From Opitutales bacterium (GTDB taxonomy: Bacteria; Verrucomicrobiota; Verrucomicrobiia; Opitutales; Opitutaceae): 64,000 nt of DNA. The notes under the pieces were generated by a model that saw only the letters and a list, made by a program, of their open reading frames with translations, had not been told where the DNA came from and searched no databases. How positions within the stretch are numbered: the stretch's first letter is position 1; each line of letters starts with the position of its first letter. This document shows, piece by piece, positions 30,855 to 46,724 of this stretch. The stretch lies in contig JBBRLB010000011.1 of NCBI GenBank assembly GCA_038231575.1, positions 1,488 through 65,487 on the forward strand, read 5' to 3'. Position numbers and translations under genes: made by a program.

Positions 30855-33800
30855 TTAATGGAAATCGTGCGACGCCTGCGCGGGCAGATCGGATTCCCGC
30901 AGCGGTTCGATCGTCTCGGCGCGCACGTGGGTGACGTTCGACACGTTTTGCAGACGTCCGGTGATTTTCAACGCGGGCTCCTGGGTGATGACGAGGCGCA
31001 GGCGTTCGAAGAGCTGCGGCACCACGACGGCGTTGGCGATGCCGGTTTCGTCCTCGAGGCTGAGGAAGACAAAACCCGCCGCCGTGCCGGGGCGTTGCCG
31101 GCAAATAACGGCGCCCGCGATGGTGACCGTCTGGCCGTTGGCCACGTGCCGCAAGTCTTTCGCCGGACACACCTCGAGCCGATCGCGGATCAAGGCCATC
31201 GGGTGCTCGCCGACAGTGAGGCCGAGGCCGGAAAAATCCGCCTGCACTTCCTCCCCGCGCGACATCGCGGCGAGCGGGGAGTCTTCGCGATACGCGTCGG
31301 CGAACTGCTTGAAGAGTGCCTCGTCATCCGACCACGCGGCTTCGACCTGCCAGAGCGCCGTGCGGCGGTGATGCGAAAACACATCCAGCGCACCGACGGC
31401 GGCGAGCGCGCGCCGCTCGGTGGCGGTGAAGTCCGAGCGCCGCAAAAAATCGTCGAGCGAGGTGAAGGGCTGTTCGTCGCGGGCGGCGAGCATCGCCCGA
31501 GCGGCCGCTTCGCGCAGGCCCTTCACGAAGCGCAAACCGAGGCGAATGCTTTTTCCCCCTGCGACCGTGCACTCCCAGCGGGAAGCGGCCACGCAGACCG
31601 GGTGGGCCTGCAACGCGTGGCGCCGGCCATCCTGCAACAGCGTCGCGGGCGAATAGAATCCCATCGGCTGATGATTGAGCAGGCTCGCGTAAAATTCCGC
31701 CGGCCGGTGAATCTTCAGCCACGTGCTCGCATACGCCAGCATCGCGAACCCAATCGCGTGCGATTCGGGAAAGCCGTAGGCGGCGAACGTGCGCGCGGAA
31801 TCACAGACGCGGTTGACGACGGCTTCATTGTGACCCTCGCGGCGGAGCGCGAGCATGAGCTGGGCGAGGGCGTGGTGCAGTTTCTCCGGTTGCTTGGTGA
31901 AGCCCATCGCGCGGCGCAATTCCTCGGCTTGCGCCCCGCTGAATTTCGCGAGCGTCATGGAAAGCTCCAGCATCTGCTCCTGAAACAAAATCACGCCCCG
32001 CGTGCGCGCGAGGATCGGTTTCACGAGCGCTTCGACGGAAGGATCGATGTAGTCGTCTTTTTCCACTCCGTCCCGCCGGCGGATGAGCGGATGGACGAGG
32101 TGGCCGGTGATCGGACCGGGCCGGATGATCGCGACTTGGATGGCGAGGTCGTAGAGGTTGACGGGCTTGAAGCGCGGGAGCGTCGCCATCTGGGCGCGGC
32201 TCTCAATTTGGAAAACACCCACGGTGTCGGCGGCGCGGATTTTCTCGTAGGTTTCAGGATCGTCGGGCGGGATGTCGTTGAAATTGTGCGGGCCGCCGCG
32301 GTGGGCGCAGAGTTCGAACGAATCCTGCAGGACGGCCATCATGCCGAGACCGAGAAAATCGATCTTCACGATGCCGAGATTTTCGCAGTCGTCCTTGTCC
32401 CACTGGCAGACGCTGCGCCCGGGCATGGTGGCGGGCTCGAGCGGCACGACTTTGTCGAGTTGATCGCGCGAGATGACCATGCCGCCGGAGTGCTGACCGA
32501 GATGGCGGGGCAGGCCCTGGAGGTGATGGTGCAACCGCACCATCGCTTCGGCGCGCGGATGCGGCGCGGCGATGCCCGCCATCCGGAGTTGCTCCTGCAG
32601 ATCGAGCGTCTGGGGAAAATCGCCATTGGCGTAGAGACTCGAAAAACGATCGAGCGCGTCGTCGCCGAAGCCGAGGACCTTGCCGATTTCACGCGTGGTG
32701 CTGCGACCGCGATAGGTGATGACGTTGGCGGTCATCGCAGCGCCGCGCATTCCGTAGCGACGGTAGACTTCTTGGATGACACTCTCGCGTCGATCACCAC
32801 TCGGCAGGTCGAGATCGATGTCGGGCCAGGACGGGTTGCCGTCGGCGCCGACGCGGCCGTCGCTGAGAAAACGCTCGAAGAGGAGGCGGTGCTTGAGCGG
32901 GTTGACGGCGGTGATGCCGAGGACGTAGCAAACCGCACTGTTGGCGGCACTGCCGCGGCCCTGCACGAGAATTTTTTGCTGACGGGCCCAAGCACAGATA
33001 TCCCAAACGATCAGAAAATAGCCGGAGAATTTCAGGCGGGCGATGAGTTCGAGTTCCTTGTTGAGTTGCAGCTGGAGATTTTCGGGCAGCGCTCCGAATC
33101 GTTCATGCGCGGCGGCGAAGGTGCGCGCGCGGAGATAGGTGTCCATCGTTTCGCCCGGCGGCGTGAGGAAGCCGGGAAATTGGTAGCCGAGATTTTCGAG
33201 CGTGAACGCGAGGGTGGCGTCGAGGTGGAGGGAGTTCGCGACGGCCTCGGGCAGGTCGGCGAAGCGCTCCGCCATCTCGCGGGCGGATTTCAGGCGGCGC
33301 TCGGCGTTGATTTCGAGGCGGCGGCCGGCGGCGTCGAGCGTCGTATGCCCGCGCAGGCAGGTGAACACATCGGCGACCATGCGATCGGCGGCGGTAGCGT
33401 AGGCGACGCCACCGGTGGCGAGCACAGGCAGGCGATGCGCGGCGGCCAGGTCGCGCAGGAAGGTCATCTCGCGCTCCTCGCCACGGATCCGGTGGCGCTG
33501 CAGTTCGACGAAGAGTCGATCGCGACCGAAGATCGTGAGAAGTTTCGCGAGGGAAAAATTCGCGGCGGCGGCGCCTCCGGTGCGCCAGGCGCGGCGCACG
33601 GAGCCGTCTTCGTCGCCGGTGAGGGCGATGAGTCCGCCGGAATATTTTTCGAGTTCGGTCCACGTGGCGAAGCAGGGGCGCTTGCGATCGGAGGGAGCAG
33701 GCAAGTGGCAACGGCTTCCCGCCGCCAAGTCAGGGGATTCACCGGCGGGAAACCGTGGCCCCTTCAAACCCGGGGCGCGCGGAGTCAGCTTCGCCTCGGT

Positions 33801-34091
33801 GATGAGCTGGCAGAGATTTTGGTAACCGGTGCGCGTGGCGACGAGGAGTGGAACGACATGGCCGTCCTCCATCGTGATTTCGGCGCCGACGCGGGCGCGG
33901 AGATTTTGCTCGCGGGCGGCGCCATAGAAACGCGGCGCACCGTAAAGCCCATCGCGGTCGAGCACCGCGACCGCGGGCAGTTCCAGTCGCGCGGCCTCGC
34001 GCGCGAGATCCTCGGGCGACGAGGCGCCGCGCAGGAAACTGAAGGCGCTGCGCGCGTGGAGTTCGACGTAGCCGCTCATGGTGCTAGTCAT
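30855..34091 (-). CDS. dnaE2: Error-prone DNA polymerase DnaE2 (ImuC)
   Basis: PHP-domain start YVELHARSAFSFLRGASSPEDL. About 1075 aa. The ATG at 34091 overlaps the imuB stop (ATGACTAG). ATG 34079 is an alternative start. Confidence 0.9.
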   Translation of the reverse strand: MTSTMSGYVELHARSAFSFLRGASSPEDLAREAARLELPAVAVLDRDGLYGAPRFYGAAREQNLRARVGAEITMEDGHVVPLLVATRTGYQNLCQLITEAKLTPRAPGLKGPRFPAGESPDLAAGSRCHLPAPSDRKRPCFATWTELEKYSGGLIALTGDEDGSVRRAWRTGGAAAANFSLAKLLTIFGRDRLFVELQRHRIRGEEREMTFLRDLAAAHRLPVLATGGVAYATAADRMVADVFTCLRGHTTLDAAGRRLEINAERRLKSAREMAERFADLPEAVANSLHLDATLAFTLENLGYQFPGFLTPPGETMDTYLRARTFAAAHERFGALPENLQLQLNKELELIARLKFSGYFLIVWDICAWARQQKILVQGRGSAANSAVCYVLGITAVNPLKHRLLFERFLSDGRVGADGNPSWPDIDLDLPSGDRRESVIQEVYRRYGMRGAAMTANVITYRGRSTTREIGKVLGFGDDALDRFSSLYANGDFPQTLDLQEQLRMAGIAAPHPRAEAMVRLHHHLQGLPRHLGQHSGGMVISRDQLDKVVPLEPATMPGRSVCQWDKDDCENLGIVKIDFLGLGMMAVLQDSFELCAHRGGPHNFNDIPPDDPETYEKIRAADTVGVFQIESRAQMATLPRFKPVNLYDLAIQVAIIRPGPITGHLVHPLIRRRDGVEKDDYIDPSVEALVKPILARTRGVILFQEQMLELSMTLAKFSGAQAEELRRAMGFTKQPEKLHHALAQLMLALRREGHNEAVVNRVCDSARTFAAYGFPESHAIGFAMLAYASTWLKIHRPAEFYASLLNHQPMGFYSPATLLQDGRRHALQAHPVCVAASRWECTVAGGKSIRLGLRFVKGLREAAARAMLAARDEQPFTSLDDFLRRSDFTATERRALAAVGALDVFSHHRRTALWQVEAAWSDDEALFKQFADAYREDSPLAAMSRGEEVQADFSGLGLTVGEHPMALIRDRLEVCPAKDLRHVANGQTVTIAGAVICRQRPGTAAGFVFLSLEDETGIANAVVVPQLFERLRLVITQEPALKITGRLQNVSNVTHVRAETIEPLRESDLPAQASHDFH

Positions 34092-35709
34092 ATTCGCCCT
34101 CGATGAACCAGGCGCCGTCGACGCGCAGGAGCCGGTAGAGTCCGCCGCCGGCCAGCGCGATGTCCCACTCAAGTCGCGACCACGCGCGATCGTTTTGCCA
34201 CCACTCGCCGCTGCTGGGCCAAACGAGGCTGCGAAAGGCAATTTCACCCCGGAGGCGCTCGGTCCAGAGGAACGTCGGGCGACCTTCCATGAACTCGAGT
34301 CGGGCCGGGAGCGGCGGGCGAAAACGGCGCAGCGGCGTGCTGAGGACGGGATGCAGGGGCGGCGACGCGAGCGGAGGAATCACGGCGGCGGGCGGGGTGA
34401 GTCTCACGGCATCGGGCCGATGCGTGTCTTCAAGTTGCGGCGTGCCCAGACGATCGGCGCCGACGAGGGCGGAGACGCGCGCGAGGGTCTCGGCGAAGCC
34501 GTGCGGATCGCGCAGGCCGGTTTCGAACAGTCCTTGCTGGCGGACGAGCGGGCGCGTGGGCGTGAGGCGAAGATCGACGGCGATGATCGAGGCGGCGGTT
34601 TGCAGCGATGCGAGATGCGTGTGCAGCGCGCGAAAAAGGATTTCCGGATCGGCGGTGGGCTCGGGCAGGCGGAAATCCCGGGCGTGCCGGGTTTCGTCCT
34701 CGAGGCGGAGCGTGAGCTCGATCTCGGCGGCGACGTGTTGCGAGGTGATCAACTCGAGCGAGAGGCGATCGAGGAAGCGGCGGAGGAGGAAGAGGAGGGG
34801 ATCGAGGGTTTCGATCGGGTCTTCGAATTCCATCGTGGCGGAAAAGGTTTGCGGCGGGATGACGGGGCGCAGCGGGCGCGGGTCGCCCCCGGCAGCGCGT
34901 TGCCAGACGGCGAGGCCCTCGGCGCCGAAGCGGCGCACGATGTCGTCGCGGGGCAAGGCCGTGAGATCGCCGAGCGTGCGCAGACCCCAGTTGGCAAAAA
35001 CCCCGGCGAGTTCAAGCGACGGATCGGCAAAGGCGAGGGGAAGTGGGGCGAGGAAGTTTTTTTCGTCGGGACTCGCGATGAAGCGGAGGGAAGATTCTTC
35101 GCCGGCCATCGTGCTCGTAATTTGAATCGTTCGCTCGGTGGGAGCGGAAGCGGGTGATTTTCCGGCAGGAGCACGAGAAAGATTAAGAGCACCAGAAGGA
35201 TTGAACGGAGTCGCCCTCGCGGCGTAGAGCGCGAGGAGCGGCGTGCGCGCCAGGCCGGCGGTGGCGGGGAGCGCGAGCCGCGCCAGTTCGGCGATGGCCG
35301 CGTGAGCCGCGGGGGTGAATTTTTCGCGAACGGAACCGCGGAGATCGATCGTGGAGATGCCGGGGGCGGTGGCCTCGATCGCGGGCGAGAGGGTGAAGGC
35401 GACGGCGAGGAGGGCGGCGCGGGCTTCGATTTCGGCGGCGAGGTTGGGCGCGCGAATGAGGAGCGTGGGGCAGCGCGCGACGGCTTGTGGGGCCGTCATG
35501 CCACGTTCGACGCCAGCGGCACGCGCGGTGGGGGTGGTCGCGAGGACGAGGGATTTCTTCCCCGTATTGGCGAAGAGCGCCGCCTTTCGACCCTGCTCTC
35601 TTCGGCTCGGCTCAGGGCCGGCAGGGCCGGCAGAATTATCGCGACTCGCGCGCTCCGTGCGCAGCACGGCGTAAAGAGCGAAGTCGGCGATGTGAAGAAC
35701 GGCGAACAC
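34084..35709 (-). CDS. imuB: ImuB (Y-family polymerase-like mutasome subunit)
   Basis: MFAVLHIADFAL...GVERGMTAPQAVARCP. Its position between imuA and dnaE2 fits. GTG start. Confidence 0.85.
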   Translation of the reverse strand: MFAVLHIADFALYAVLRTERASRDNSAGPAGPEPSRREQGRKAALFANTGKKSLVLATTPTARAAGVERGMTAPQAVARCPTLLIRAPNLAAEIEARAALLAVAFTLSPAIEATAPGISTIDLRGSVREKFTPAAHAAIAELARLALPATAGLARTPLLALYAARATPFNPSGALNLSRAPAGKSPASAPTERTIQITSTMAGEESSLRFIASPDEKNFLAPLPLAFADPSLELAGVFANWGLRTLGDLTALPRDDIVRRFGAEGLAVWQRAAGGDPRPLRPVIPPQTFSATMEFEDPIETLDPLLFLLRRFLDRLSLELITSQHVAAEIELTLRLEDETRHARDFRLPEPTADPEILFRALHTHLASLQTAASIIAVDLRLTPTRPLVRQQGLFETGLRDPHGFAETLARVSALVGADRLGTPQLEDTHRPDAVRLTPPAAVIPPLASPPLHPVLSTPLRRFRPPLPARLEFMEGRPTFLWTERLRGEIAFRSLVWPSSGEWWQNDRAWSRLEWDIALAGGGLYRLLRVDGAWFIEGEYD

Positions 35710-35757
35710 AGGAGAGGGACGAGTGGCCCGGGACGTGAGACGAGTCCGGACGGGCGC

Positions 35758-36402
35758 TCATGCCGTGGCGGCGGTGTGAAGGCGCTGGCGTTGCAGAGTG
35801 GGCGAGAGGATTGTGGCGAGCGCGGGACGTTCGAGGGAGAGCGCGGTGAGCGCGTGCGAGGCGTTGAGGAGGAAGCGGAGTTGGGCGCTGGGCACCGTGG
35901 CGTGCGGGGTAATGACGACGAGGGCGAGGTCGCTGGGTTCGGCGGCGCGTTGGAGGCGATACCAAAAGCTGGCGGGCGTGCGGCGCAGTTCGCGGTCGCT
36001 GGCGTGGCGTAGATCGAGGACGACGAGGCCGAGATTGGCGTCGCGGGTGAGAAGATCGGTGGCGGCGAGAGCTATCGCGGGCGTGCAGCGGACCCACACC
36101 AGGTGCGCGAGCAGATCGACAGGAAACGAGCCGGGATCGAAGGAGTCGGTGGCGTCGACGAGGGCGACGCGCGTGCGAGTGGCGCGGGTCGCGGCAAGCA
36201 GTTGCTCGAGGAGGAGATGACTGCCGCAGCTCGGCGCGGCGCAGACGATCTCGGTTACGGCGCCGAGCGGGAGTCCGCCGGCCGGATCATCGAGCGCGGC
36301 GAGGCCAGTGCGCAGCGCGCGCGCGACGACGCGCGGCGCGGTGGGAAATTTTTCGGCGAGTTTGCGCCGGAGCTCCGCCAGTTTCTCGGCCGCCGCAGGC
36401 AT
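35758..36402 (-). CDS. imuA: ImuA (RecA/SulA-like mutasome subunit)
   Basis: 214 aa. TGLAALDDPAGGLPLGAVTEIVCAAPSCGSHLLLEQLL. Located upstream of imuB-dnaE2. Confidence 0.8.
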   Translation of the reverse strand: MPAAAEKLAELRRKLAEKFPTAPRVVARALRTGLAALDDPAGGLPLGAVTEIVCAAPSCGSHLLLEQLLAATRATRTRVALVDATDSFDPGSFPVDLLAHLVWVRCTPAIALAATDLLTRDANLGLVVLDLRHASDRELRRTPASFWYRLQRAAEPSDLALVVITPHATVPSAQLRFLLNASHALTALSLERPALATILSPTLQRQRLHTAATA

Positions 36403-37524: not shown

Positions 37525-37773
37525 ATGAACACGATCACTGTCGGCGCCTACGAGGCCAAGACCAAGCTCGCCCGTCTGCTCGCGCGGGTGTCGCGCGGCG
37601 GTGAAGTTATTATCACCAAGCACGAGAAACCTGTTGCACGTCTGATGCCGATCTCGCCCGACACGCGGCTGTCTGTCCAAGAATCTCTCAATGGGCTGGC
37701 CGCCATCCGCAGTCGCGCAGGACGAGGTTCCGAATCCCTCAAGCAGCTCATCGTCGCCGGCCGTCGCGCATGA
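37525..37773 (+). CDS. Phd/YefM-family type II antitoxin (VapB role)
   Basis: MNTITVGAYEAKTKLARLLARVSRGGEVIITKHEKPVARLMP. Its stop overlaps the downstream PIN gene start. Confidence 0.85.
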   Translation: MNTITVGAYEAKTKLARLLARVSRGGEVIITKHEKPVARLMPISPDTRLSVQESLNGLAAIRSRAGRGSESLKQLIVAGRRA

Positions 37774-38186
37774 CGCCGGTCGTGATTGATAGTTCGGTGA
37801 CGCTGGGTCTGGCGTTGCCGGATGAAAGTGGCGACGTGGTGACTGCGGCCGAGACGGCGATGCGCAAAGGCACGCCGTTCTATGCGCCGGCACATTGGAG
37901 CATCGAAGTCGCCAATGGCGTGTTGATGGCGGAGCGCCGCAAACGGATCACCCATGCCGATGCCCGCGCTGTGCTGAATCTGATTCGCCATCTGCCGGTC
38001 GAGATCGATGGTGAACTGACGCTTCATGCTTTCGACACCATTTCGGCTCTGGCGCGGCAATATAGTCTGACGACCTACGACGCGGCTTACCTTGAACTCG
38101 CGATGCGCCGGCGCGCGGCGCTGGCCACGCTGGATGCAGCCTTGCGAAAAGCGGCTTCGACAGCGGGCGTGCCACTTCTCGCCTGA
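37770..38186 (+). CDS. vapC: PIN-domain toxin VapC
   Basis: MTPVVIDSSV...TTYDAAYLELA. Acidic PIN residues sit at the expected spacing. Confidence 0.85.
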   Translation: MTPVVIDSSVTLGLALPDESGDVVTAAETAMRKGTPFYAPAHWSIEVANGVLMAERRKRITHADARAVLNLIRHLPVEIDGELTLHAFDTISALARQYSLTTYDAAYLELAMRRRAALATLDAALRKAASTAGVPLLA

Positions 38187-38222: not shown

Positions 38223-39323
38223 GTGTCACGCGCCCTGGCCGATTTCAGTTTGTCCGAACTCCAGCAGCAATTCGCTGCGTGGGGCGCGAAGCCGTCGCAC
38301 GCGGCGCGGGTGCTGCGGGCGTATTACGAGAACGGCGGCGAACTGCCTGAACTCGTCGCGACTCCGACGTCATCGCGCACTTCGTCGGCGCGGCCTGGTT
38401 TCGCGCTGCCCGATGATCTGCTCGCGCGGCTCCGCACGGAACTCGCGCCCGGCGCAGCGGAGGTGGCGGTGCGCCAAGTCGCGGCGGACGGCACGACGAA
38501 ACTGCTCTTGCGACTCGGCGACGGGCGCACGGTCGAGTCGGTGCTGATGCCGGATTTTCGCGCGGACCGCGCGGCGGGTTGCATTTCCTCCCAAGTCGGC
38601 TGCGCGATGGGTTGTGATTTTTGCGCGACGACGAAGACCGGTTTCGAGCGCAACCTCACCGCCGGCGAAATCGTGGCGCAGTTTCTCGCGCTTCGTCGCG
38701 AAGCGCGCACCACGGGCCGCCGGCTGCAAACGGTCGTGTTCATGGGCATGGGCGAACCGCTGCTCAACCTCGACCACGTGATCGAAGCCGTGCGCCGCAT
38801 CGCCGACAACCCGCTTGGCGCGCTCGGTTGGCGGCAGGTGACGGTGTCGACCGTCGGCATTGTGCCGGGCATCGATGCGCTCGCCGCCACCGGCCTGAAC
38901 GTGAATCTCGCCGTCTCGCTCCACGCGCCCGACGACGCCACGCGCGCGTCACTCCTGCCGATGGGAAAACGTTTCGCCATCGCGGAAATCCTCGCCGCCG
39001 CCGATCGGTTTCAGGCGAAACGCGGCCGGCCGGTGACGATTCAATACTGCCTGCTCAAGGGCGTGAACGATTCCGCCGAACACGCGCGCACGCTGGCGTC
39101 CGTCCTCGGCGCACGCCGCATGCACGTGAATTTGCTGCGCTACAATCCCACCGGCCTCAGTCTGCGCGGCATCAGCTACGAGCCAACGTCCGACGACACG
39201 GCTGAGACGTTTGTCGCCGAATTGCGCACGCGCGGAGTCGTCGCACATTTCCGCCGTTCGCGCGGGCCGGAGATCGACGCGGCCTGCGGGCAACTGCGGC
39301 GGCGGGTTTCCGAGCCAGCATAG
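38223..39323 (+). CDS. rlmN: Radical-SAM 23S rRNA/tRNA (adenine-C2) methyltransferase RlmN
   Basis: CISSQVGCAMGCDFCATTK radical-SAM cluster motif ... MGMGEPLLN ... IDAACGQL at the C-terminus. GTG start. Confidence 0.92.
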   Translation: MSRALADFSLSELQQQFAAWGAKPSHAARVLRAYYENGGELPELVATPTSSRTSSARPGFALPDDLLARLRTELAPGAAEVAVRQVAADGTTKLLLRLGDGRTVESVLMPDFRADRAAGCISSQVGCAMGCDFCATTKTGFERNLTAGEIVAQFLALRREARTTGRRLQTVVFMGMGEPLLNLDHVIEAVRRIADNPLGALGWRQVTVSTVGIVPGIDALAATGLNVNLAVSLHAPDDATRASLLPMGKRFAIAEILAAADRFQAKRGRPVTIQYCLLKGVNDSAEHARTLASVLGARRMHVNLLRYNPTGLSLRGISYEPTSDDTAETFVAELRTRGVVAHFRRSRGPEIDAACGQLRRRVSEPA

Positions 39324-39815
39324 AAGGCATTAAGAACTAAAACCTGACTCCGCCTGCTCGCTCGGTTTCGGGCGCCGTGGCGATCATCTCGTCGGACCAC
39401 GCGATCACTTCGGGCGCTTCGACGAAGCTTTCGTGATGCGTTGGATAAAATATTCCGCCTTAGTCCGGATAGTTCATCTTCCGAACTCTTCAGAGGTCAT
39501 GATTATGCCCAGAGCGAAAGGCTGGTGTGAAGATCGCCCCGAGCACGGATGAGGCGAGGAGAACCCCGGTGGTTTTCACGGGGGGACAGATTCATGATGG
39601 GCAGAAAGCTTACCGCCACGAGTAACTCTGCTCGCGTGGATGCGAGTTAAGAACCAAGGACGGCTAGCGTAACCCGAGCGAGGATCGACCCAGCGAGAAG
39701 CTCAGGAAAGCGAGGATTGCCTTGGAGGAAAATCCTCCCGCGTAGGGTTGAGACCCACTCATGCGGAGGAAGAATGTCGGGAACCAGCGACCGATCCGCT
39801 CAATCTATTCTCGTT

Positions 39816-40403
39816 ATGAAAGCCCCCGCTCTCCCCCTGAGTGCTTTGGCCGCTGCCATCGCGACACTCGGCTCCGGCTGCGCCAGCAGCACCCCGCCCC
39901 CGCCCCCTCCTCCTCCCGCTTACTCGCAATACCCCAACTCCTATCCAGCCGACGAGTCTCGCACTCCGAACCACACCGCGCGGGGCGCCGTCGCCGGGGC
40001 GGTGGCCGGTGCCGTGCTCGGCGGGATTATCGGCAACAACTCCGAGCACGGGAACACCGAAAAAGGTGCCGTGATCGGTGCCGTCGCCGGCGGCATTGCC
40101 GGCGGTGTGATCGGTCACCATGCAGATCAGCGGGAGTCCGCCGGCGTTTACTCGCCGGACACGGGCTATGTCGTGCAAACCGTGCCCCAGCAGCCTGGAT
40201 CGGAGCCGTATGAGCAGGTGCCGCCGCAACCGGCGCAGCAAGCCGTGTGGATCCGCGGCCACTACGATTACGTCGGCAACGGTTATCAGTGGACACCGGG
40301 CCGGTGGGAGATTCCACCGGGCGGCGCACGCGTGTATATCGGCCCATCATGGCAGCCAGCGGCGAGGGGCGGCTACATTTACGTGCGCGGACACTGGCAG
40401 TGA
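39816..40403 (+). CDS. Lipoprotein with a glycine-zipper segment and C-terminal YXWGXW-type repeats
   Basis: MKAPALPLSALAAAIATLGSGC lipobox. GAVAGAVAGAVLGGIIG / GAVIGAVAGGIAGGVIG glycine zippers. WIRGHYDYVGNGYQWTPGRWEIPP and YIYVRGHW repeats. ATG 39774 is an alternative start. Confidence 0.75.
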   Translation: MKAPALPLSALAAAIATLGSGCASSTPPPPPPPPAYSQYPNSYPADESRTPNHTARGAVAGAVAGAVLGGIIGNNSEHGNTEKGAVIGAVAGGIAGGVIGHHADQRESAGVYSPDTGYVVQTVPQQPGSEPYEQVPPQPAQQAVWIRGHYDYVGNGYQWTPGRWEIPPGGARVYIGPSWQPAARGGYIYVRGHWQ

Positions 40404-40550
40404 GCCTCGCGTGCAAAATGGTATCCTCGGTTCACAAAACTGGCGGTGCCCAGAGCCTCCTTTTGCTGTAAACCCGCCGAATGAGAGGGGGTGAATGTTT
40501 GCGTTCAGCTCCCCACCTACCGCTGGTCCCGCTCATCGCCGATCGTTGTC

Positions 40551-42710
40551 TCACTTCGCCAGCGGATCGGGCCGGAGCTGGAAGTGCATGACTTTGCTCG
40601 TGGTGCCTTTCCCGGTCTCCATGTGAAACGGCGCGCGCGTGCTCACGCACGCCCAGAGGCCGCGGCCTTTCCAGCCGGCCTTCGCGTCGTCGATGCGGCC
40701 GTCCATCCACTTGGTATAAAACCCGAGCGGGTAGGGCACGCGCAGGATCACCCACTGGCCGTCCTTCAACGCGAGCAGGCCCTCGGATTCGTTGCCGGTG
40801 TTGATCGGCGTGTTTTTACCGAGGCCCAGCGTGTCGAACTGATCGACCCACGTGTAGTAACTCGCCTCGGCGCTGCCGCCGGTCTTCACGCCCTGCAACT
40901 GCGGCAACGGTTCCGGATAAAATGTCCAGCCCTCGCGCGCGTGCTGGCCCGTCGCGGTCGGGCCGTTGAGCGGACCCTTCACTTTGCGCCGATCGAAACT
41001 CGCCATGTGCCCGCTCGCGAGCGCGACCCACGCCACGCCGTCGCGATCGATGTCCATCCCGCGGGGCGAGAAACCCTCGATGGGCTCACCCTTGTCATTG
41101 AGCGGGAGTTCGTAATATTCGGCGAGCGCCGTTGAGGGCGGATTCGCTCCGGGATTCAGTCGCACGATCGCGCCGGGATAACTGAGCACCGAGCCCCACA
41201 CGGAGCCGTCGGGTGCCGGCGACACCGAATAAAACGGCGCGTTGATGCGTTTGTCCTTCGCGGGATCGACGGGGTCGTTGGGCTCGACGTAGGCGTCGCG
41301 GCGGCCGTTGCCGTTCGTGTCGAGAATGAGCGCGGTCCAGCCTTGCGACGCGACCTCGTCGCCCGTCTCGAGAAATTTTTTCGTGTTCAACCAGCCCACG
41401 ACCTGGCCGCCGCCGCTCGTCCACGCGGTGTTGTTGGCGTCCTCCGCGAACATCACGTGATGCGTGCTGAAGCCGGTGCTGATGTGCGTGTATTTCTGCG
41501 TCTTCGGATCATACATGCCGAGGTGGCGGCTCGCGTTGGCGAGCGGGAAAAGTTTTGCCGACTCGAAAGCCGAGCCCTTGCGGAAAACTTCCGGATTGGC
41601 CGACGGCCGCACGGTCGCGGTGATCCAGACGCGGCCTTCGCCGTCGAACATCGGATTGTGCACGTTGGCCTTGCTGTTCCAGATAATCTCGTCGCCCCAA
41701 TACGGCGAGGCGCCCGGTTTTTCCTGCGCGGCCGCCGGTTTCGTCGCCGGATCGCGCACCGTCAACGGCACGCGGCTCGTCGTGTGATGCACCGGATCGA
41801 GCACGGGTAGGTAGTCGGCGCTGAGCTCGAGCGAGCCGTAGAGGAGACCGTTGGCGTTGACGGTGGGGTTGCGGCGGTCGGTCGAGACCACGTCGTGGAG
41901 ATAGGCCTTCGGATCGGCCCAGTCCCACTGCGTGATGACGACGTTGCGCTCGATCCCCTGCGGCCGGCGCGGTGCCGGCGGCACCTCGCCCGCGGCGATG
42001 CGATCGGTCCAGTCGGCAAACATTTTTATGGCGCGCTCGCGGCCGACGCTGGCGAGCGTGCGGACCATGTCGGCGCCCGCCTGGCCCGAGAGAATCCGGC
42101 GTTCCCAGGCCTTCTCGGTGGACTCCAAGCCGTGAAACAGATCGGGCAGCTCGCGCGTCGCCTGCGTGCCGAGCGCGTGACACGAGAAGCAGCCGCCGGA
42201 TTTGATGATGCGGAGAAACTGCGCCTGATTTTTGATCGTGGGTGAAATGCCGTTGCCGATGGTGCCGGGAAATTCTTCCGGCGCCGGCGGACGCAACAGC
42301 GAATACCAATAGCCCGCCGGATAATAATGCGCGGCGGCTTTCGGAGTCGGCGCGATGACGGCAGAGAGATTGAGCGTCTTGCCGGGCGCGGATTTTAGCT
42401 TCGCGGAATCAACGAGACCATAGCCGCGCACCCACACGTCGTAATTCGCCGCCGGGAGTTCCGGGAGCACATAACGCCCGCGATCATCGGTCACGACGAT
42501 CTTCGCGAACTTGGTCGGGAGGTCCGTCGTCTCCGCGATCACCCACACGCCCGCCTCGGGGCCGGCCGGGCTCGTGACGACGCCCTCCAGTGATCCAGTC
42601 CCTGGCGGCGGTGATTGACCGAAACTCAGAGTGACACCGACGAGGAATAGAAAGAGCGCGCCAGTGATCGGCGCACGCAATGAGAAGCCGGAGTCGAGGA
42701 GAAGTTTCAT
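40551..42710 (-). CDS. Secreted multidomain protein: carboxypeptidase-regulatory-like domain, single CXXCH heme-c motif, large beta-rich C-terminal region
   Basis: Signal peptide MKLLLDSGFSLRAPITGALFLFLVGVTLSFG. GSLEGVVTSPAGPEAGVWV...VTDDRGRYVLPELPAANYDVWV. The only heme motif is GGCFSCH. The track start at 42884 adds an implausible 58-aa extension. Confidence 0.7.
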   Translation of the reverse strand: MKLLLDSGFSLRAPITGALFLFLVGVTLSFGQSPPPGTGSLEGVVTSPAGPEAGVWVIAETTDLPTKFAKIVVTDDRGRYVLPELPAANYDVWVRGYGLVDSAKLKSAPGKTLNLSAVIAPTPKAAAHYYPAGYWYSLLRPPAPEEFPGTIGNGISPTIKNQAQFLRIIKSGGCFSCHALGTQATRELPDLFHGLESTEKAWERRILSGQAGADMVRTLASVGRERAIKMFADWTDRIAAGEVPPAPRRPQGIERNVVITQWDWADPKAYLHDVVSTDRRNPTVNANGLLYGSLELSADYLPVLDPVHHTTSRVPLTVRDPATKPAAAQEKPGASPYWGDEIIWNSKANVHNPMFDGEGRVWITATVRPSANPEVFRKGSAFESAKLFPLANASRHLGMYDPKTQKYTHISTGFSTHHVMFAEDANNTAWTSGGGQVVGWLNTKKFLETGDEVASQGWTALILDTNGNGRRDAYVEPNDPVDPAKDKRINAPFYSVSPAPDGSVWGSVLSYPGAIVRLNPGANPPSTALAEYYELPLNDKGEPIEGFSPRGMDIDRDGVAWVALASGHMASFDRRKVKGPLNGPTATGQHAREGWTFYPEPLPQLQGVKTGGSAEASYYTWVDQFDTLGLGKNTPINTGNESEGLLALKDGQWVILRVPYPLGFYTKWMDGRIDDAKAGWKGRGLWACVSTRAPFHMETGKGTTSKVMHFQLRPDPLAK

Positions 42711-42837
42711 AGTCCGTGTCCTTTCACGAAGCGAGGGAGTGGGGCAGCAACCGCCGGATGATCGAACGCCCGGCGGTGGCGTGAACGGCAACACACTGAC
42801 CTCCCCGAGGCAACGTCGATGTGGGTTGTCTCGTTGC

Positions 42838-43133
42838 TCACATTGTGAGGTGCTCGGCCCAATAGCCCGGCCTCCGTTTGCCATGCATCACTGCGACGAC
42901 GTGCAGCCGTTCGGGTTCAATCGTGTAGAGCAACTTGAACGGAAATCCCGCACGACGCATTTGCGCACCGGTCCGCGCAGGCGCGGCCACACTTTGGGAT
43001 GCGCCGTTATGCGCGCGACGGTGAGCATCGCCGCTTGATAGAATCTCAAGCCCAAGCCGGGGGACCCAGCCTGATAATAATCGATCGCCGCCTGAAACTC
43101 CGCGTCAGCCTCGGGGTGGAAGAGCGCGTTCAC
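42838..43133 (-). pseudogene. RelE/ParE-family toxin with a -1 frameshift
   Basis: The N-terminal frame reads MNALFHPEADAEFQAAIDYYQAGSPGLGLRF...VRKCVVRDF. The family-typical C-terminus (P)FKLLYTIEPERLHVVAVMHGKRRPGYW is only readable after a one-base shift at GG 42941-42942, where GGG is expected. Confidence 0.75.
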
Positions 43134-43243
43134 AGGCCCAGCCGTCGCTGCGCCTTGGCAAAGACTTCCTCCGCCGGCACACCTTTGACTGCACCGCTCG
43201 TCAATTCCTCGGCCCGTCGCTCAGCCGTGTCAGCCCAAGCGGC
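43130..43243 (-). pseudogene. 5'-truncated addiction-module antitoxin (only the C-terminal 37 codons remain)
   Basis: AAWADTAERRAEELTSGAVKGVPAEEVFAKAQRRLGL matches the C-terminal half of the small 'putative addiction module component' antitoxins. There is no start codon. Its upstream part is replaced by the rlmN fragment. Its stop overlaps the toxin GTG. Confidence 0.65.
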
Positions 43244-43319
43244 TTTCCGCCGTTCGCGTGGTCCGGATATCGACGCGGCGTGCGGGCAACTCAGGAGGCG
43301 TAATGAAATATTAGCATGA
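43244..43319 (+). pseudogene. Orphan second copy of the rlmN 3' end (last 24 codons plus stop)
   Basis: Encodes FRRSRGPDIDAACGQLRRRNEILA*, compared with FRRSRGPEIDAACGQLRRRVSEPA* at 39248-39323. There is no upstream rlmN body. Confidence 0.85.
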
Positions 43320-43381
43320 GCTGCGCGTCTGCTGGCTGAGTGACGCGTGACAAGTTACGAGTTTCTGCCTACAGAATCTGA

Positions 43382-43972
43382 ATGCTCTTTGCCGAAATTA
43401 TTGAAAACCACGGCATCGATTTAGTTAATGCTGTCGCTGTTCCATTTGTTGTTTCTCTAGTCGTTGGGATACCTCTTGCGATCTATGCCGGATTAGTGGG
43501 ATCGCGACTTGTTGGGTTCTACGAGACTCGCACTGCAGCTGTTCAGGAATTGATGTTTTTGCCGCGAGCGCTTTCAGAGGCTGGAAATATTCGTAAGGCG
43601 AATTTGAGACTCGCTGAAATGTGGGCAGCCACACGAGTAGCTTTTAATGGTCAGAACCAAGCCGAGGCTTCGGCAGTTCTCGATCGCTTGAATAGAGAGG
43701 CGATCGGATTTTACAGGCACGCCTTCCTGACGCAGATGAGCTTAGCTGAGATAAATGCGGTTATGGGTGACGCTCAGGCTATGAGTGAGGAGCGCTGGTT
43801 TTCGATGAGTTGTGGCATTATCGAGCAAAACACGATTGGCTTAAACCAGCTTCGCGAAATTGAATCTTTAGAGCCTAACTACTCGGTGATTTTTGAAGTG
43901 CCAACTTTGGGACGCTGGTTGCGTCGCAGCGATTGCGGCGACTGCTGCTCGAATTGTAAACGAGTGCTTTAA
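43382..43972 (+). CDS. Orphan hypothetical membrane protein (196 aa), AT-richer than its surroundings
   Basis: One predicted TM helix (AVAVPFVVSLVVGIPLAIYAGLVG), a helical body, and a Cys-rich tail CGDCCSNC. Its codons (TTA, ATA, AGA, AAT, TTT) are otherwise rare in this window. Confidence 0.65.
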   Translation: MLFAEIIENHGIDLVNAVAVPFVVSLVVGIPLAIYAGLVGSRLVGFYETRTAAVQELMFLPRALSEAGNIRKANLRLAEMWAATRVAFNGQNQAEASAVLDRLNREAIGFYRHAFLTQMSLAEINAVMGDAQAMSEERWFSMSCGIIEQNTIGLNQLREIESLEPNYSVIFEVPTLGRWLRRSDCGDCCSNCKRVL

Positions 43973-43974
43973 TC

Positions 43975-44079
43975 TTACGCCTTCTTATTCCGTCCGCCCT
44001 TTGCCTCGATGTTCAGGTAAGTCTCATTGAGCATCTGGCTTTCGTAAAGTTCGAGGAGGCGGACGCCTTCGCGCGGCTT
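43975..44079 (-). pseudogene. Orphan second copy of the speA 3' end (last 34 codons plus stop)
   Basis: Encodes KPREGVRLLELYESQMLNETYLNIEAKGGRNKKA*, compared with KPREGVRLLELYESQMLNKTYLNIEAKGGRKKKA* at 44781-44885. Confidence 0.85.
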
Positions 44080-44384
44080 CAGGCGGACAGGGGTTCGACT
44101 TCGGCTTCGATGCGGCGACCGAGCGCGGTGCGGGCTTGCTCCAGATCGTAAGCTTGCTGGAGATTCAGCCAGAAGCGCTCACCGGTGCCGAAGAAACGGC
44201 CGAGGCGCAGCGCGGTGTCGGCGGTGATGGCTCGGCGCCCTTTGGTGATCTCGGTGAGGCGCGAGGCGGGAATGCCCGTGCGCTGGCTCACTTGATAGCA
44301 GCTGAGGTCGTGCGGTGTGATCCACTCCTCGAGCAGAATCTCCCCGGGCGTGATATTGGAAACGACGGGCAGTTTGGTTTTCAT
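44079..44384 (-). CDS. higA: HigA-family antitoxin (XRE helix-turn-helix)
   Basis: ITPGEILLEEWITPHDLSCYQVSQRTGIPASRLTEITKGRRAITADTALRLGRFFG. Confidence 0.88.
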   Translation of the reverse strand: MKTKLPVVSNITPGEILLEEWITPHDLSCYQVSQRTGIPASRLTEITKGRRAITADTALRLGRFFGTGERFWLNLQQAYDLEQARTALGRRIEAEVEPLSA

Positions 44385-44412
44385 GGCAGATGAATTCTCG
44401 GGCGAGCAGGGT

Positions 44413-44694
44413 TCAGTGGTAATCTACAATTTCAACGTTGTGGGCATCTTCGCCGGCCCAACGGAAGCAGAGGCGCCACTGGTCGTTTATGCGAATGCTG
44501 TGTTGGCCGCGGCGTGAGCCCTTGAGAGCTTCCAGTCGATTGCCGGGTGGCAGGCGCATGATGTCGAGTCGATCGGCGGCATCAAGTTGGAGGAGCTTGC
44601 GTCGGGCGGCGCGTTGGATGTCAGGCGGCAAGTGACGTGAAGCCGTGCCGCCAAAGAGCTTTTCGGTCTCAGCGTCAGCGAAGCTTTTGATCAC
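44413..44694 (-). CDS. higB: HigB-type (RelE-fold) plasmid-maintenance killer toxin
   Basis: MIKSFADAETEKLF...LEALKGSRRGQHSIRINDQWRLCFRW. Toxin-first gene order is typical of HigBA. GTG start. Confidence 0.88.
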   Translation of the reverse strand: MIKSFADAETEKLFGGTASRHLPPDIQRAARRKLLQLDAADRLDIMRLPPGNRLEALKGSRRGQHSIRINDQWRLCFRWAGEDAHNVEIVDYH

Positions 44695-44780
44695 GAAGGC
44701 CAGGGTAGGCCACGTGACGATGTTCGCAAGCAGAATAGTTACGCGAAGCGTAACTATGGATTCGAACTACAGATCCACGC

Positions 44781-46724
44781 CTACGCCTTCTTCTTCCGCC
44801 CGCCCTTCGCCTCGATGTTCAGGTAGGTCTTGTTGAGCATCTGGCTCTCGTAGAGTTCGAGGAGGCGGACGCCTTCGCGGGGTTTGACCATGTCCTTCTT
44901 CGTCGCGGCATCGATCTGCACTTTCATTTTCCGGCACAGATCCTCTTGCTGGTATTGCACGCCTTCGATCACGTCGGCGATGCGGCTGCCGCTCAGCGCT
45001 TCTTCAATATAGAAGCCGTTCGGCTCGTCGTCTTCGAGGAACACGTGGACTTCGTTCACGCGGCCGAAGAGGTTGTGGAGGTCCCCCATGATGTCCTGGT
45101 AGGCGCCGGTGAGAAAGATGCCGAGGTAGTAGGGTTTGCCGTTGAGCGGGTGGAGCGTGATGTAGTCGCGCACGTCCTGCAGATCGATGAAGCGATCGAT
45201 CTTGCCGTCGGAGTCGCACGTGATGTCGACGAGGATGGCGTTGACGGTGGGCTTTTCCTTGAGCCGGTGGAGCGGCGCGATCGGGAAGAGTTGATCGAGA
45301 CCCCAGTGATCGAGCAGCGACTGGAAGACGGAGAAATTGCAGACGTATTGGTCGGCGAGGAGCTTGTCGAGGTCGTGGAGTTCCTCGGGCTGGTAGCCGG
45401 ATTTTTTTCCTTCCTTCGCGATCTGCTCGCAGATTTGCCAGAAGAGCGATTCGGCGGCGGCGCGGTTTTCGAGATCGAGATAGCCGAGGTTGAAGAGGGA
45501 GAACGCCTCCTCCTTTTTCTGCAGCGCATCGTGGAACCGCTCAAGCAGGCCGAGCTTGGTTTTGTTCTTCAACATCACCTCGAGATCGGTGACGACTTTG
45601 TGCTTTTCGTCGGGCTCGTGCTGCTTGCCGAGTGACTCGCGCTTGTTGATCCGCTCGAACACCTCGACGACGAGCATCGAGTGCTGCGCGACGACGGCGC
45701 GGCCGGACTCGCTGACGATGTCGGGGACGGCGACGCCGGACGAGGTGCAGATTTCGCGGATGTTGAAGACGACATCGCGCGCGTATTCCTCCATCGAGTA
45801 GTTCATCGAGCTTTCGAAGTTCGTGCGCGAGCCGTCGTAGTCGATGCCGAGGCCGCCGCCGACATCGAGGTAGCCCATCGGGAAACCCATCTTCGCGAGC
45901 TGGCAGTAGAAGCGCGTGGCTTCGACGACCGCGTTTTTGATCGTGAGGATGTTCGGCACCTGCGAACCGATGTGGAAATGCACGAGGCGCAGGCACGATT
46001 GCAGTTTCGCGGCGCGGAGTTTTTCGCAGGCGAAAAGAATTTCCGCGGTGTTGAGACCGAACTTGGCGTTGTCGCCGGTCGAGGTCGCCCAACGGCCTTC
46101 CCCGCGCGTCTGGAGTTTCGCGCGAAAACCGATCATCGGTTTCACGCCGGTCTCAGCGGCGAGGCGGATGATGTCGTCGAGTTCGGAGAGTTGTTCGACG
46201 ACGAGGATGATCTTCTTGCCGAGCTTGCGGCCGAGGAGGGCGAGCCGGATGTAATCCTGATCCTTGTAGCCGTTGCAGATGATGAGGCGTTGGGCGCCTT
46301 CGTGCATCGCGAGCGCAATCATCAGCTCGGGCTTGGAGCCGGCCTCGAGGCCGAAGTTGAACTCCTTGCCGGCCGCGACGATCTCGTCGACGACCTCGCG
46401 GAGCTGGTTGACCTTGATCGGGAAGACGCCGCGGTAGTCGCCCTTGTAGCCTTCCTCTTTCATCGCCTTCAGGAAAACTTGGTTGAGCTGGACGACGCGG
46501 TGGCGGAGCAAATCCTGAAAGCGGATGACCATCGGCGCCTTGAGGCTCATGCCGAGGGCCTCGTTGACGACATCGAGCACGCGGATGCCGCGGCCATCGG
46601 TCAGCGGCTGGACGTTGACGAAGCCATCGTCATCGACCGAGAGATGCCCGGAGCCCCAGCGTTTGAAGCCGTAGTGCTCTTCGGACTTGGCGGCCGACCA
46701 GGCGGCGGAGGATTTGGTTTTCAG
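44781..46724 (-). CDS. speA: Biosynthetic arginine decarboxylase SpeA (start uncertain; CTG proposed)
   Basis: FPIKVNQ...GLEAGSKPEL...NGYKD...HFHIGSQ...DVGGGLGIDY. The conserved N-terminal segment EEHYGFKRWGSGHLSVDDDGFVNVQP lies upstream of the first ATG/GTG/TTG (GTG 46580). The only near-cognate start in the open frame is CTG 46724. Confidence 0.85.
   Translation of the reverse strand: MKTKSSAAWSAAKSEEHYGFKRWGSGHLSVDDDGFVNVQPLTDGRGIRVLDVVNEALGMSLKAPMVIRFQDLLRHRVVQLNQVFLKAMKEEGYKGDYRGVFPIKVNQLREVVDEIVAAGKEFNFGLEAGSKPELMIALAMHEGAQRLIICNGYKDQDYIRLALLGRKLGKKIILVVEQLSELDDIIRLAAETGVKPMIGFRAKLQTRGEGRWATSTGDNAKFGLNTAEILFACEKLRAAKLQSCLRLVHFHIGSQVPNILTIKNAVVEATRFYCQLAKMGFPMGYLDVGGGLGIDYDGSRTNFESSMNYSMEEYARDVVFNIREICTSSGVAVPDIVSESGRAVVAQHSMLVVEVFERINKRESLGKQHEPDEKHKVVTDLEVMLKNKTKLGLLERFHDALQKKEEAFSLFNLGYLDLENRAAAESLFWQICEQIAKEGKKSGYQPEELHDLDKLLADQYVCNFSVFQSLLDHWGLDQLFPIAPLHRLKEKPTVNAILVDITCDSDGKIDRFIDLQDVRDYITLHPLNGKPYYLGIFLTGAYQDIMGDLHNLFGRVNEVHVFLEDDEPNGFYIEEALSGSRIADVIEGVQYQQEDLCRKMKVQIDAATKKDMVKPREGVRLLELYESQMLNKTYLNIEAKGGRKKKA

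Follow-up and report, generated by a model that had tools for sequence, protein, structure and literature searches.

How does a housekeeping gene come to possess its 3′ end twice, with a toxin–antitoxin (TA) module between the two copies? The question is raised by speA, the gene for biosynthetic arginine decarboxylase, in a 64,000 nt stretch of the Opitutales bacterium contig JBBRLB010000011.1 (the window, in what follows), where the last 105 nt of the gene reappear in unchanged orientation at 43975–44079, on the far side of a higBA cassette. The explanation favoured here, to which we give a rough probability of 0.55, is that recombination at a hypervariable spot left the repeat as its scar, in an insertion that was anchored by homology and closed by short homology, without a dedicated element.

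The speA gene lies on the minus strand at 44781..46580, taken from its first canonical start, and matches the Pfam families Orn_Arg_deC_N, Arg_decarb_HB and Arg_decarbox_C. Its functional 3′ end forms the proximal copy of the repeat (44781..44887, minus strand), with the stop codon TAG at 44781–44783 and a G+C content at third codon positions (GC3) of 0.91, as in the rest of the gene. The distal copy is an orphan (43975..44081, minus strand), truncated on its 5′ side at −105 from the stop, complete at its 3′ end, and closed by TAA. The two copies form an ungapped direct repeat of 104 nt (43976–44079 versus 44782–44885) with 90% identity (BLAST E = 1e-37), and their longest perfect identity, 26 nt, is close to the 5′ edge. 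Ten of the 34 codons compared are different, eight of them synonymously and two not (K to E and K to N), and third positions hold nine of the ten base differences. The interval between the copies, 44080–44780, measures 701 nt and consists of an 86 nt spacer, higB and higA. The original prediction had described two ends of the same orientation with these codon differences, unlike stops and about 0.7 kb of intervening DNA, and each of these particulars is borne out by alignment and codon comparison. On the plus strand the wider gene order is lexA (−), phd/vapC (+), rlmN (+), a lipoprotein gene (+) and the gene of a 777 aa protein (−), then a frameshifted parE with half an antitoxin gene (−), an orphan rlmN end (+) and the open reading frame (ORF) ORF196 (+), followed by the orphan speA end (−), higA and higB (−), speA (−), and yajC and secDF (+).

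The locus was compared with 80 Opitutaceae loci from a species-representative scan, in which SpeA is 87–97% identical in amino acids. The speA ends were compared with those of 79 functional relatives, and duplication of a genome's own speA end was looked for in 76 relatives, within 10 kb. The closest genome, L001, shares 97% of SpeA amino acids and 90.5% of nucleotides.

The distal junction of the repeat (J2) lies at the stop codon of higA. The earlier claim that this stop (44079–44081) overlaps the orphan by one base can be refined to an overlap of 1–3 nt, or of 13 nt including the string that both sequences share. Homology to speA extends through the higA stop to 44081, where relatives read G-TGAAGCC, and the shared string, TGAAGCCGCGCGA (44069..44081, minus strand), is common to the native 3′ flank of higA and to speA at −105. 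In L001, L100 and 10 of the 79 relatives, speA has G-TGAAGCCGCGCGA-AGG at a distance of exactly 105 nt from its stop. Downstream of higA the 13-mer is found, exact or with the stop TAA, in L082 and L085–L098, where higA follows an oxidoreductase gene and its stop and flank read TGA-AGCCGCGCGAG. Across 17 loci the higA 3′ flank is identical in 15 and carries the stop TAA in one, and L083/L084 have TGAATCGCGCGAGG and TGAATCGCGCAAAGG, their stop and flank reading TGA-ATCGCGCGAGG or TGA-ATCGCGCAAAGG; beyond the conserved string the flanks of different contexts diverge. Since the 13-mer is common to the cassette flank and to speA, the junction appears to sit exactly at the end of the antitoxin gene, and the putative crossover is placed by these comparisons somewhere within TGAAGCCGCGCGA (44069–44081).

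The window comes from a metagenome-assembled genome, and its contig might have fused two strains, one carrying speA-higBA and the other speA-ORF196, in which case the orphan would belong to the complete speA of the other strain. The sole independent contig, L081 (Logan, SRR19962015), is 100% identical to 42208–44040 and stops inside the orphan, 39 nt before the higA/orphan junction, and exact look-ups of HigA and HigB returned no further contig with this junction. However, L081 reproduces the other junctions of the region, from the parE remnant through orphan rlmN and ORF196 to orphan speA, at 100% identity. The 13 nt shared at the junction are far under the k-mer sizes used by assemblers, and stacked gene ends of the same kind are present in three contigs from other projects and assemblers. 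A fusion of strains is for these reasons very improbable.

The differences between the two speA ends indicate where the orphan diverged. Eight of its ten differing states fall on polymorphic sites of functional speA, all at third positions and with both states found in the working genes of the 79 relatives, and the two that are unique among these relatives are the non-synonymous changes, K to E and K to N. Because eight of the ten differences are states of working genes, most of the divergence is attributed to a functional speA elsewhere; the orphan derives from the gene of another lineage and has decayed only slightly since. Duplication in place followed by neutral decay is rejected by the same excess of synonymous, naturally polymorphic differences. 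It had been proposed either that a TA cassette inserted at the end of speA had brought or regenerated that end, or that a foreign fragment with a speA end had been placed beside a resident higBA. That one of the two ends is xenologous is upheld by the synonymous, polymorphic character of the divergence, and either direction still fits. A nearest-relative comparison of both ends gives L001 in each case (92% for the functional end and 90% for the orphan, nearest or near-nearest for both), so that direction is not separated. L001 is first or second in all 3′ windows of functional speA, which is uniformly about 90% identical to it with no step near the 3′ end. The orphan occupies the position that complete speA has in L099 and L100, two contigs sharing the adjacent block of orphan rlmN end and parDE; direction leans slightly to a cassette that arrived with a new speA end, and the collinearity with L099 and L100 fits both directions. 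The GC3 of the orphans is 0.71 (speA) and 0.52 (rlmN), against 0.91 and 0.80 in the functional genes; as a marker of direction composition is not decisive, with L001 similar in those segments and a sample of about 55 codons.

Two further observations concern speA itself. A patch at 45824–46423 (positions 301–900 of a 1943 nt segment aligned from 46723) has L003 and L008 as its nearest relatives (up to 92%), not L001, which suggests an older, probable mosaic recombination inside the gene. Upstream of the first ATG/GTG/TTG, about 48 conserved codons (46581–46724) precede the canonical start, and SpeA is annotated at 647 aa in relatives; either translation begins at a non-canonical codon or SpeA has a shorter N-terminus in this genome.

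In relatives, the DNA between speA and lexA is variable. In L001 rlmN and speA face each other tail to tail across about 50 nt, lexA adjoins rlmN and there is nothing else, and in L101 and L102 two unrelated genes separate rlmN and speA, with no repeats. Genomes with lexA downstream of speA have a gap of 86 nt to 4.9 kb between the two, and its cargo is unrelated from one genome to another (a PIN toxin pair, glycosidase-like genes, regulators); in the window the gap is 7.4 kb. Given this range of sizes and contents, the interval is a hypervariable hot spot for accessory DNA. A second copy of the genome's own speA end was found in none of the 76 relatives, nor was the orphan part of a longer, decayed speA paralog in any of them.

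The cassette between the two speA ends is a type II TA module by its layout, with higB first, higA 28 nt further on, and both on one strand. The toxin gene higB (44413..44694, minus strand) matches PF05015 over profile positions 1–91 of 91 (5e-18), and HigB is 90–94% identical in amino acids to its counterparts in L083, L084 and L006. The antitoxin gene higA (44079..44384, minus strand; HTH_3 by Pfam) encodes 101 aa and is complete, since most of 120 listed homologs have 100–101 aa and the close ones all have 101. These lengths, and the same stop in the close homologs, also dispose of the idea that HigA was cut short at the junction, which had arisen from a tail 10 aa longer in L006. Between speA and higB lies the 86 nt spacer (44695..44780, minus strand), in which the first 23 nt after the speA stop (44758–44780) are confined to this genome. 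The next 23 nt (44735–44757) are a palindrome, ATAGTTACGCTTCGCGTAACTAT, which also occurs in higBA cassettes of other contexts and marks the point at which homology among them begins; it is likely to be the HigA operator, to judge from its position and conservation. The cassette is thus a compact unit of operator, higB, higA and about 12 nt. Part of the 23 nt confined to this genome, AGTTCGAATCC, resembles a tRNA T-loop or T-arm; a tRNA origin was rejected, as ARAGORN makes no tRNA prediction and none of the other fetched loci contains the string. No Rfam family and no terminator was found in the spacers.

The cassette is not tied to the repeat. In L006 higBA adjoins speA (83% nucleotide identity) and no second speA end is present, which answers the earlier suggestion to look downstream of speA in other genomes. 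The cassette also occurs in two further contexts, after an oxidoreductase gene (L082, L085–L098), where no repeats were found around it, and at another locus (L083, L084). Because the same cassette is found after speA and in two other contexts without the repeat, the repeat is not inherent to higBA. L085–L098 represent one population in which at least three alternative islands lie downstream of the same higBA, among them a helicase (ResIII)/RhuM/methyltransferase set and a RES-Xre pair, and this region is a second hot spot, bordered by the higBA cassette.

The original prediction had implied a second repeated gene end in this region, and it is found at rlmN, which is convergent with speA (38223..39323, plus strand; Radical_SAM, and the TIGR00048 RlmN equivalog at 317 bits against a cut-off of 290). 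The last 76 nt of the functional gene (39248–39323, plus strand) are the proximal copy, and the orphan (43244..43319, plus strand) is 5′-truncated at −76 and retains its own stop, with six synonymous changes and one non-synonymous. The two share 57 nt at 88% identity (39248–39304 versus 43244–43300), followed by a diverged tail up to the stop at 43319; RlmN C-terminal tails are hypervariable after CGQLRRR, and the conserved rlmN string is the FRRSRGPDIDAACGQLRRR coding region. At its 5′ edge (J1) the orphan abuts the middle of an antitoxin gene, of which the C-terminal 37 codons are left (43130..43243, minus strand; TIGR02574-type), and the bases shared at the join are GGAA. The adjacent ParE-like toxin gene (42838..43133, minus strand) is frameshifted, and has intact relatives with 84–87% amino acid identity in L099 and L100. 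The parE/antitoxin module (42838–43243) is dead, as its toxin is frameshifted and its antitoxin lacks the first half and the promoter. By comparison with L099 and L100, J1 seems to have arisen by a later deletion, which would have disabled the module as well. An identity of few bases at the join, which is the mark of homology-facilitated illegitimate recombination (HFIR), is present at both junctions, with 13 nt at J2 and the 4 nt GGAA at J1.

Stacked rlmN ends recur in the clade. L099 and L100 were found by a metagenome scan with repaired ParE, and L103 among RlmN proteins more than 90% identical. L100 (1790–3010) has the functional rlmN, a 52 nt spacer, an orphan rlmN end (−98), parE and parD; a second orphan (−179) comes next, and behind it the downstream motif, one ORF and speA. 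L099 (1215–2060) has speA, one ORF and an orphan rlmN end (−213) with parDE beside this single orphan. L103 (5900–8159) has rlmN, a small RelB/ParD-like pair, a frameshifted orphan of about 400 nt, hicAB with one more ORF, and a third rlmN end (−184). There are thus two rlmN ends in the window, three in L100 and three in L103, all in direct orientation, and TA cassettes lie between the copies in L100 and L103 and beside the orphan in L099; L099, L100 and L103 belong to three separate metagenome records. All seven orphans, that of speA included, are 5′-truncated and 3′-complete, and lie downstream of the working gene in its own orientation. Their 5′ edges vary, being at −403, −213, −184, −179, −98 and −76 for rlmN and at −105 for speA. 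Compared with the functional copy of the same genome, the rlmN orphans show synonymous to non-synonymous ratios of 23:5, 10:2 and 6:1, and in L100 of 6:4 and 7:7. A single foreign insert of 836 bp (orphan rlmN, ORF196 and orphan speA) between resident parDE and higBA was considered and rejected, because the adjacency of orphan rlmN and parDE is shared with L099 and L100 and so is older than the speA event.

The unequal lengths of the rlmN orphans next to parDE (−213 in L099, −179 in L100 and −76 in the window) could be taken to mean that a complete foreign speA, and separately a complete rlmN, had been inserted and that deletions had then spared the 3′ ends, the 13 nt identity being a deletion end-point. 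The window junction that cuts into the antitoxin gene resembles such progressive deletion, as does the frameshifted orphan of about 400 nt in L103 (orphan A). Random loss should nevertheless leave 3′-truncated or internal remnants as well, and seven of seven orphans are 3′-complete; a longer speA fragment or two complete copies occur in none of the 76 relatives, and two events are required where one is sufficient. Erosion of second copies is therefore an unlikely source of the repeats.

The arrays also bring up a cassette that propagates itself, in which a TA unit would carry the rlmN or speA 3′ end as a portable homology arm and be moved by host RecA alone. An excised circle of cargo and one repeat may re-enter by a single crossover, or a linear fragment may do so with both repeats targeting the same gene in any relative. 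Such a cassette would need one conserved gene and no conserved synteny, would leave the host gene unbroken, and, with addiction blocking the reverse reaction, would accumulate in arrays like those of integrons, without an integrase. L100 and L103, each with three rlmN ends and with TA pairs between the copies (two cassettes in L103), are as this would predict, and a single crossover with the 3′ part of a gene automatically yields orphans that are 3′-complete and in direct orientation, as in seven of seven cases. The block of parDE and orphan occurs in three genomes with different neighbours, higBA of the L085 type precedes, at an unrelated locus, about 45 nt that are similar to the end of rlmN with the motif behind it, and the speA copies have their 26 nt of perfect identity near the 5′ edge. 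Against it, no circle, empty site, or identical cassette-plus-repeat with the same junction in two contexts was found, the speA repeat is unique among 76 species, and higBA stands without a repeat behind the speA gene of L006 as well as at other loci. In L100 one pair of rlmN copies encloses no cargo, and the vapBC insertion of the window has no flanking repeat. A portable arm is possible, and the strongest of the competing explanations, but on balance improbable.

The footprint that integrative elements classically leave consists of direct repeats extending from a point within the gene as far as its stop codon, together with a diverged replacement end. At speA, 3′-end direct repeats are found with the gene intact, and the repeats match this footprint. 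They might thus be what remains of an element whose attP mimicked the speA or rlmN 3′ end, which was integrated by a tyrosine or serine recombinase of its own or acting in trans, and which has decayed to a TA module. The 26 nt of perfect identity near the 5′ edge of the repeat, and rlmN edges close to −180 in two genomes, would suit such an origin. However, the Pfam search found no integrase or transposase domain in the 37 predicted genes of the 64 kb window, nor in the cargo ORFs of L099, L100 and L103, and no tyrosine or serine recombinase that could serve an element was found in the window or that cargo, to which the search was confined. A common crossover core is absent at rlmN, where the orphans have six different 5′ edges, and speA is a single instance; one repeat pair has no cargo. 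ARAGORN found no tRNA in the window. No viral contigs carrying these gene ends or a close HigA were found, and a phage or satellite carrier is rejected, as viral HigA relatives are at most 66% identical (at most 57% over near-full-length matches). A remnant of site-specific integration is accordingly quite unlikely, more so than erosion. The earlier statement that this is not a standard mobile-element architecture holds, with no integrase or transposase found and no fixed att core.

The favoured explanation, a homology-anchored insertion closed by short homology, would run as follows. On one side, DNA of a related Opitutaceae lineage, about 10% diverged, would recombine homologously with the speA already present. 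The other side would be joined through the 13 nt identity TGAAGCCGCGCGA, which lies after the higA stop in one partner and 105 nt before the speA stop in the other. In the product, complete speA would be followed by higBA as a self-contained unit that includes its operator, and then by the last 105 nt of the other lineage's gene as a dead, 5′-truncated remnant. No step would need machinery encoded by an element. The same process would have been repeated in the clade at the convergent rlmN, giving up to three stacked ends, usually with TA cassettes between or beside them. The order of events, the route by which the DNA entered and which of the two ends came in are the parts of this account that we infer.

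HFIR, with one homologous anchor and a junction of a few bases, is experimentally documented in three transformable bacteria, as presented in PMC6382021. The speA locus resembles the events described there (Meier and Wackernagel 2003; in PMC6382021) in having extended homology in a conserved gene on one side and a short, GC-rich identity on the other, with DNA foreign to the recipient inserted and no element enzyme. Several points weigh against this explanation. The events presented in PMC6382021 share 3–10 nt at the junction, compared with 13 nt here. The higA/orphan junction is supported by one assembly, no breakpoint is visible inside functional speA, and the donor lineage was not found, the best match of the orphan being L001 at 90%. 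Natural competence, or another route of DNA entry, would be needed in this uncultured organism, in which the scar is a natural one, unlike the laboratory events. HFIR deletes recipient DNA and is not known to duplicate it; here the join lies inside the anchor gene, hence the gene end is duplicated and recipient DNA is not deleted, a special case of which we know of no description. Finally, the recurrence at one gene, rlmN, with nearly coincident edges (−179 in L100 and −184 in L103), may be the sign of a process more systematic than chance.

TA cargo may be enriched at such places because addiction kills any cell from which recombination between the repeats has removed the cassette. Such a role agrees with the reported stabilisation of flanking DNA by chromosomal TA loci (PMC3827094, where Szekeres 2007 is cited). 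On present evidence the locus does not represent a new kind of mobile element; it is a clean, recurrent footprint of integrase-free acquisition beside core genes.

Several known systems share parts of this architecture. Integrative elements at the 3′ ends of tRNA, tmRNA or protein genes, and cis-mobilizable elements, likewise have direct repeats of a 3′ end and a diverged replacement end that keeps the gene, with the displaced old end distal to the cargo and arrays built up by repeated events. They differ from the present case in that no integrase was found here, the repeat edges have no single core, and the cargo is reduced to 0.7 kb or none. In the minimal mobile elements of Neisseria, homologous recombination in the same conserved flanking genes exchanges the alternative cargo between them. 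Alternative cargo occurs in this manner in the speA-lexA/rlmN interval; exchanges of minimal mobile elements are clean replacements that leave no duplicated gene ends, unlike those seen here. Insertion–duplication of the Campbell type, by a suicide plasmid with the 3′ fragment of a gene, yields the same series of intact gene, insert and 5′-truncated, 3′-complete copy, but it is a laboratory construct, and a natural circular intermediate is hypothetical here. The Vibrio superintegron also lines up small, promoter-bearing TA cassettes (higBA, parDE and others) between repeats, and TA modules are thought to stabilise its cassette array, as stated in PMC3827094. In the present arrays, which hold one or two cassettes, the place of attC hairpins is taken by 3′ ends of housekeeping genes, coding and in frame. 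A 20 nt motif at rlmN is unlike the attC consensus RYYYAAC ... GTTRRRY, as judged by eye only, with no Rfam match, and intI with attI is lacking, there being no Phage_integrase match in the window.

This motif, ATTAAGAACTAAAACCTGAC (39329..39348, plus strand), directly follows the stop of functional rlmN. The fetched DNA, 1.55 Mb in all, contains it 19 times in the form CATTAAGAAYYAAAACCTGAC(C/T)CC, and in 18 cases it follows an rlmN end or higA. It follows rlmN ends in L100, L099 and L103 and lies about 35 nt past the higA stop in L082 and L085–L098; in L085–L098 the variable defence-island region begins about 12 nt beyond it. Rfam gave no match for it. An RlmN of the window's 90% identity cluster is also encoded in P0146 (a 109,872 nt contig), in a different neighbourhood (esterase, HAD hydrolase), and rlmN has therefore been relocated within this group.

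The remaining cargo of the interval, between rlmN and the parE remnant (39717..42884), consists of genes for a glycine-zipper lipoprotein (39717–40403, plus strand) and the secreted protein of 777 aa (40551–42884, minus strand), both examined by Pfam search, and none of the 80 related loci contains it. ORF196 (43382..43972, plus strand), which separates the two orphan ends, has a low G+C content (48% in a genome of about 63%), a predicted membrane N-terminus and a stop 2 nt from that of orphan speA. It has no homolog among 5.8 billion protein clusters and may not be a real gene, and an attempt to place it between complete rlmN and speA elsewhere gave no result for want of any homolog. In the divergent promoter region of lexA and rlmN lies a phd/PIN pair of the vapBC type (37525–38186), which is absent from L001, L101 and L103; no repeats were found flanking it. 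Downstream of lexA is an imuA-imuB-dnaE2 mutagenesis cassette (30855–36402), which is present in L002, L006 and L101 and is not at this position in L001.

How small chromosomal TA modules move between genomes is poorly understood, most of them having no mobility genes. With its readable 13 nt junction and recurrent stacks of xenologous gene ends, the speA locus points to host recombination as the vehicle, and addiction is proposed as the reason that an unstable, repeat-flanked state persists. If this is general, metagenome-assembled genomes could be searched for duplicated 3′ ends of core genes as the footprint of acquisition without an integrase; if it is a rare accident, the locus would still show cleanly, and in an uncultured freshwater lineage, how short homology assists insertion in nature.

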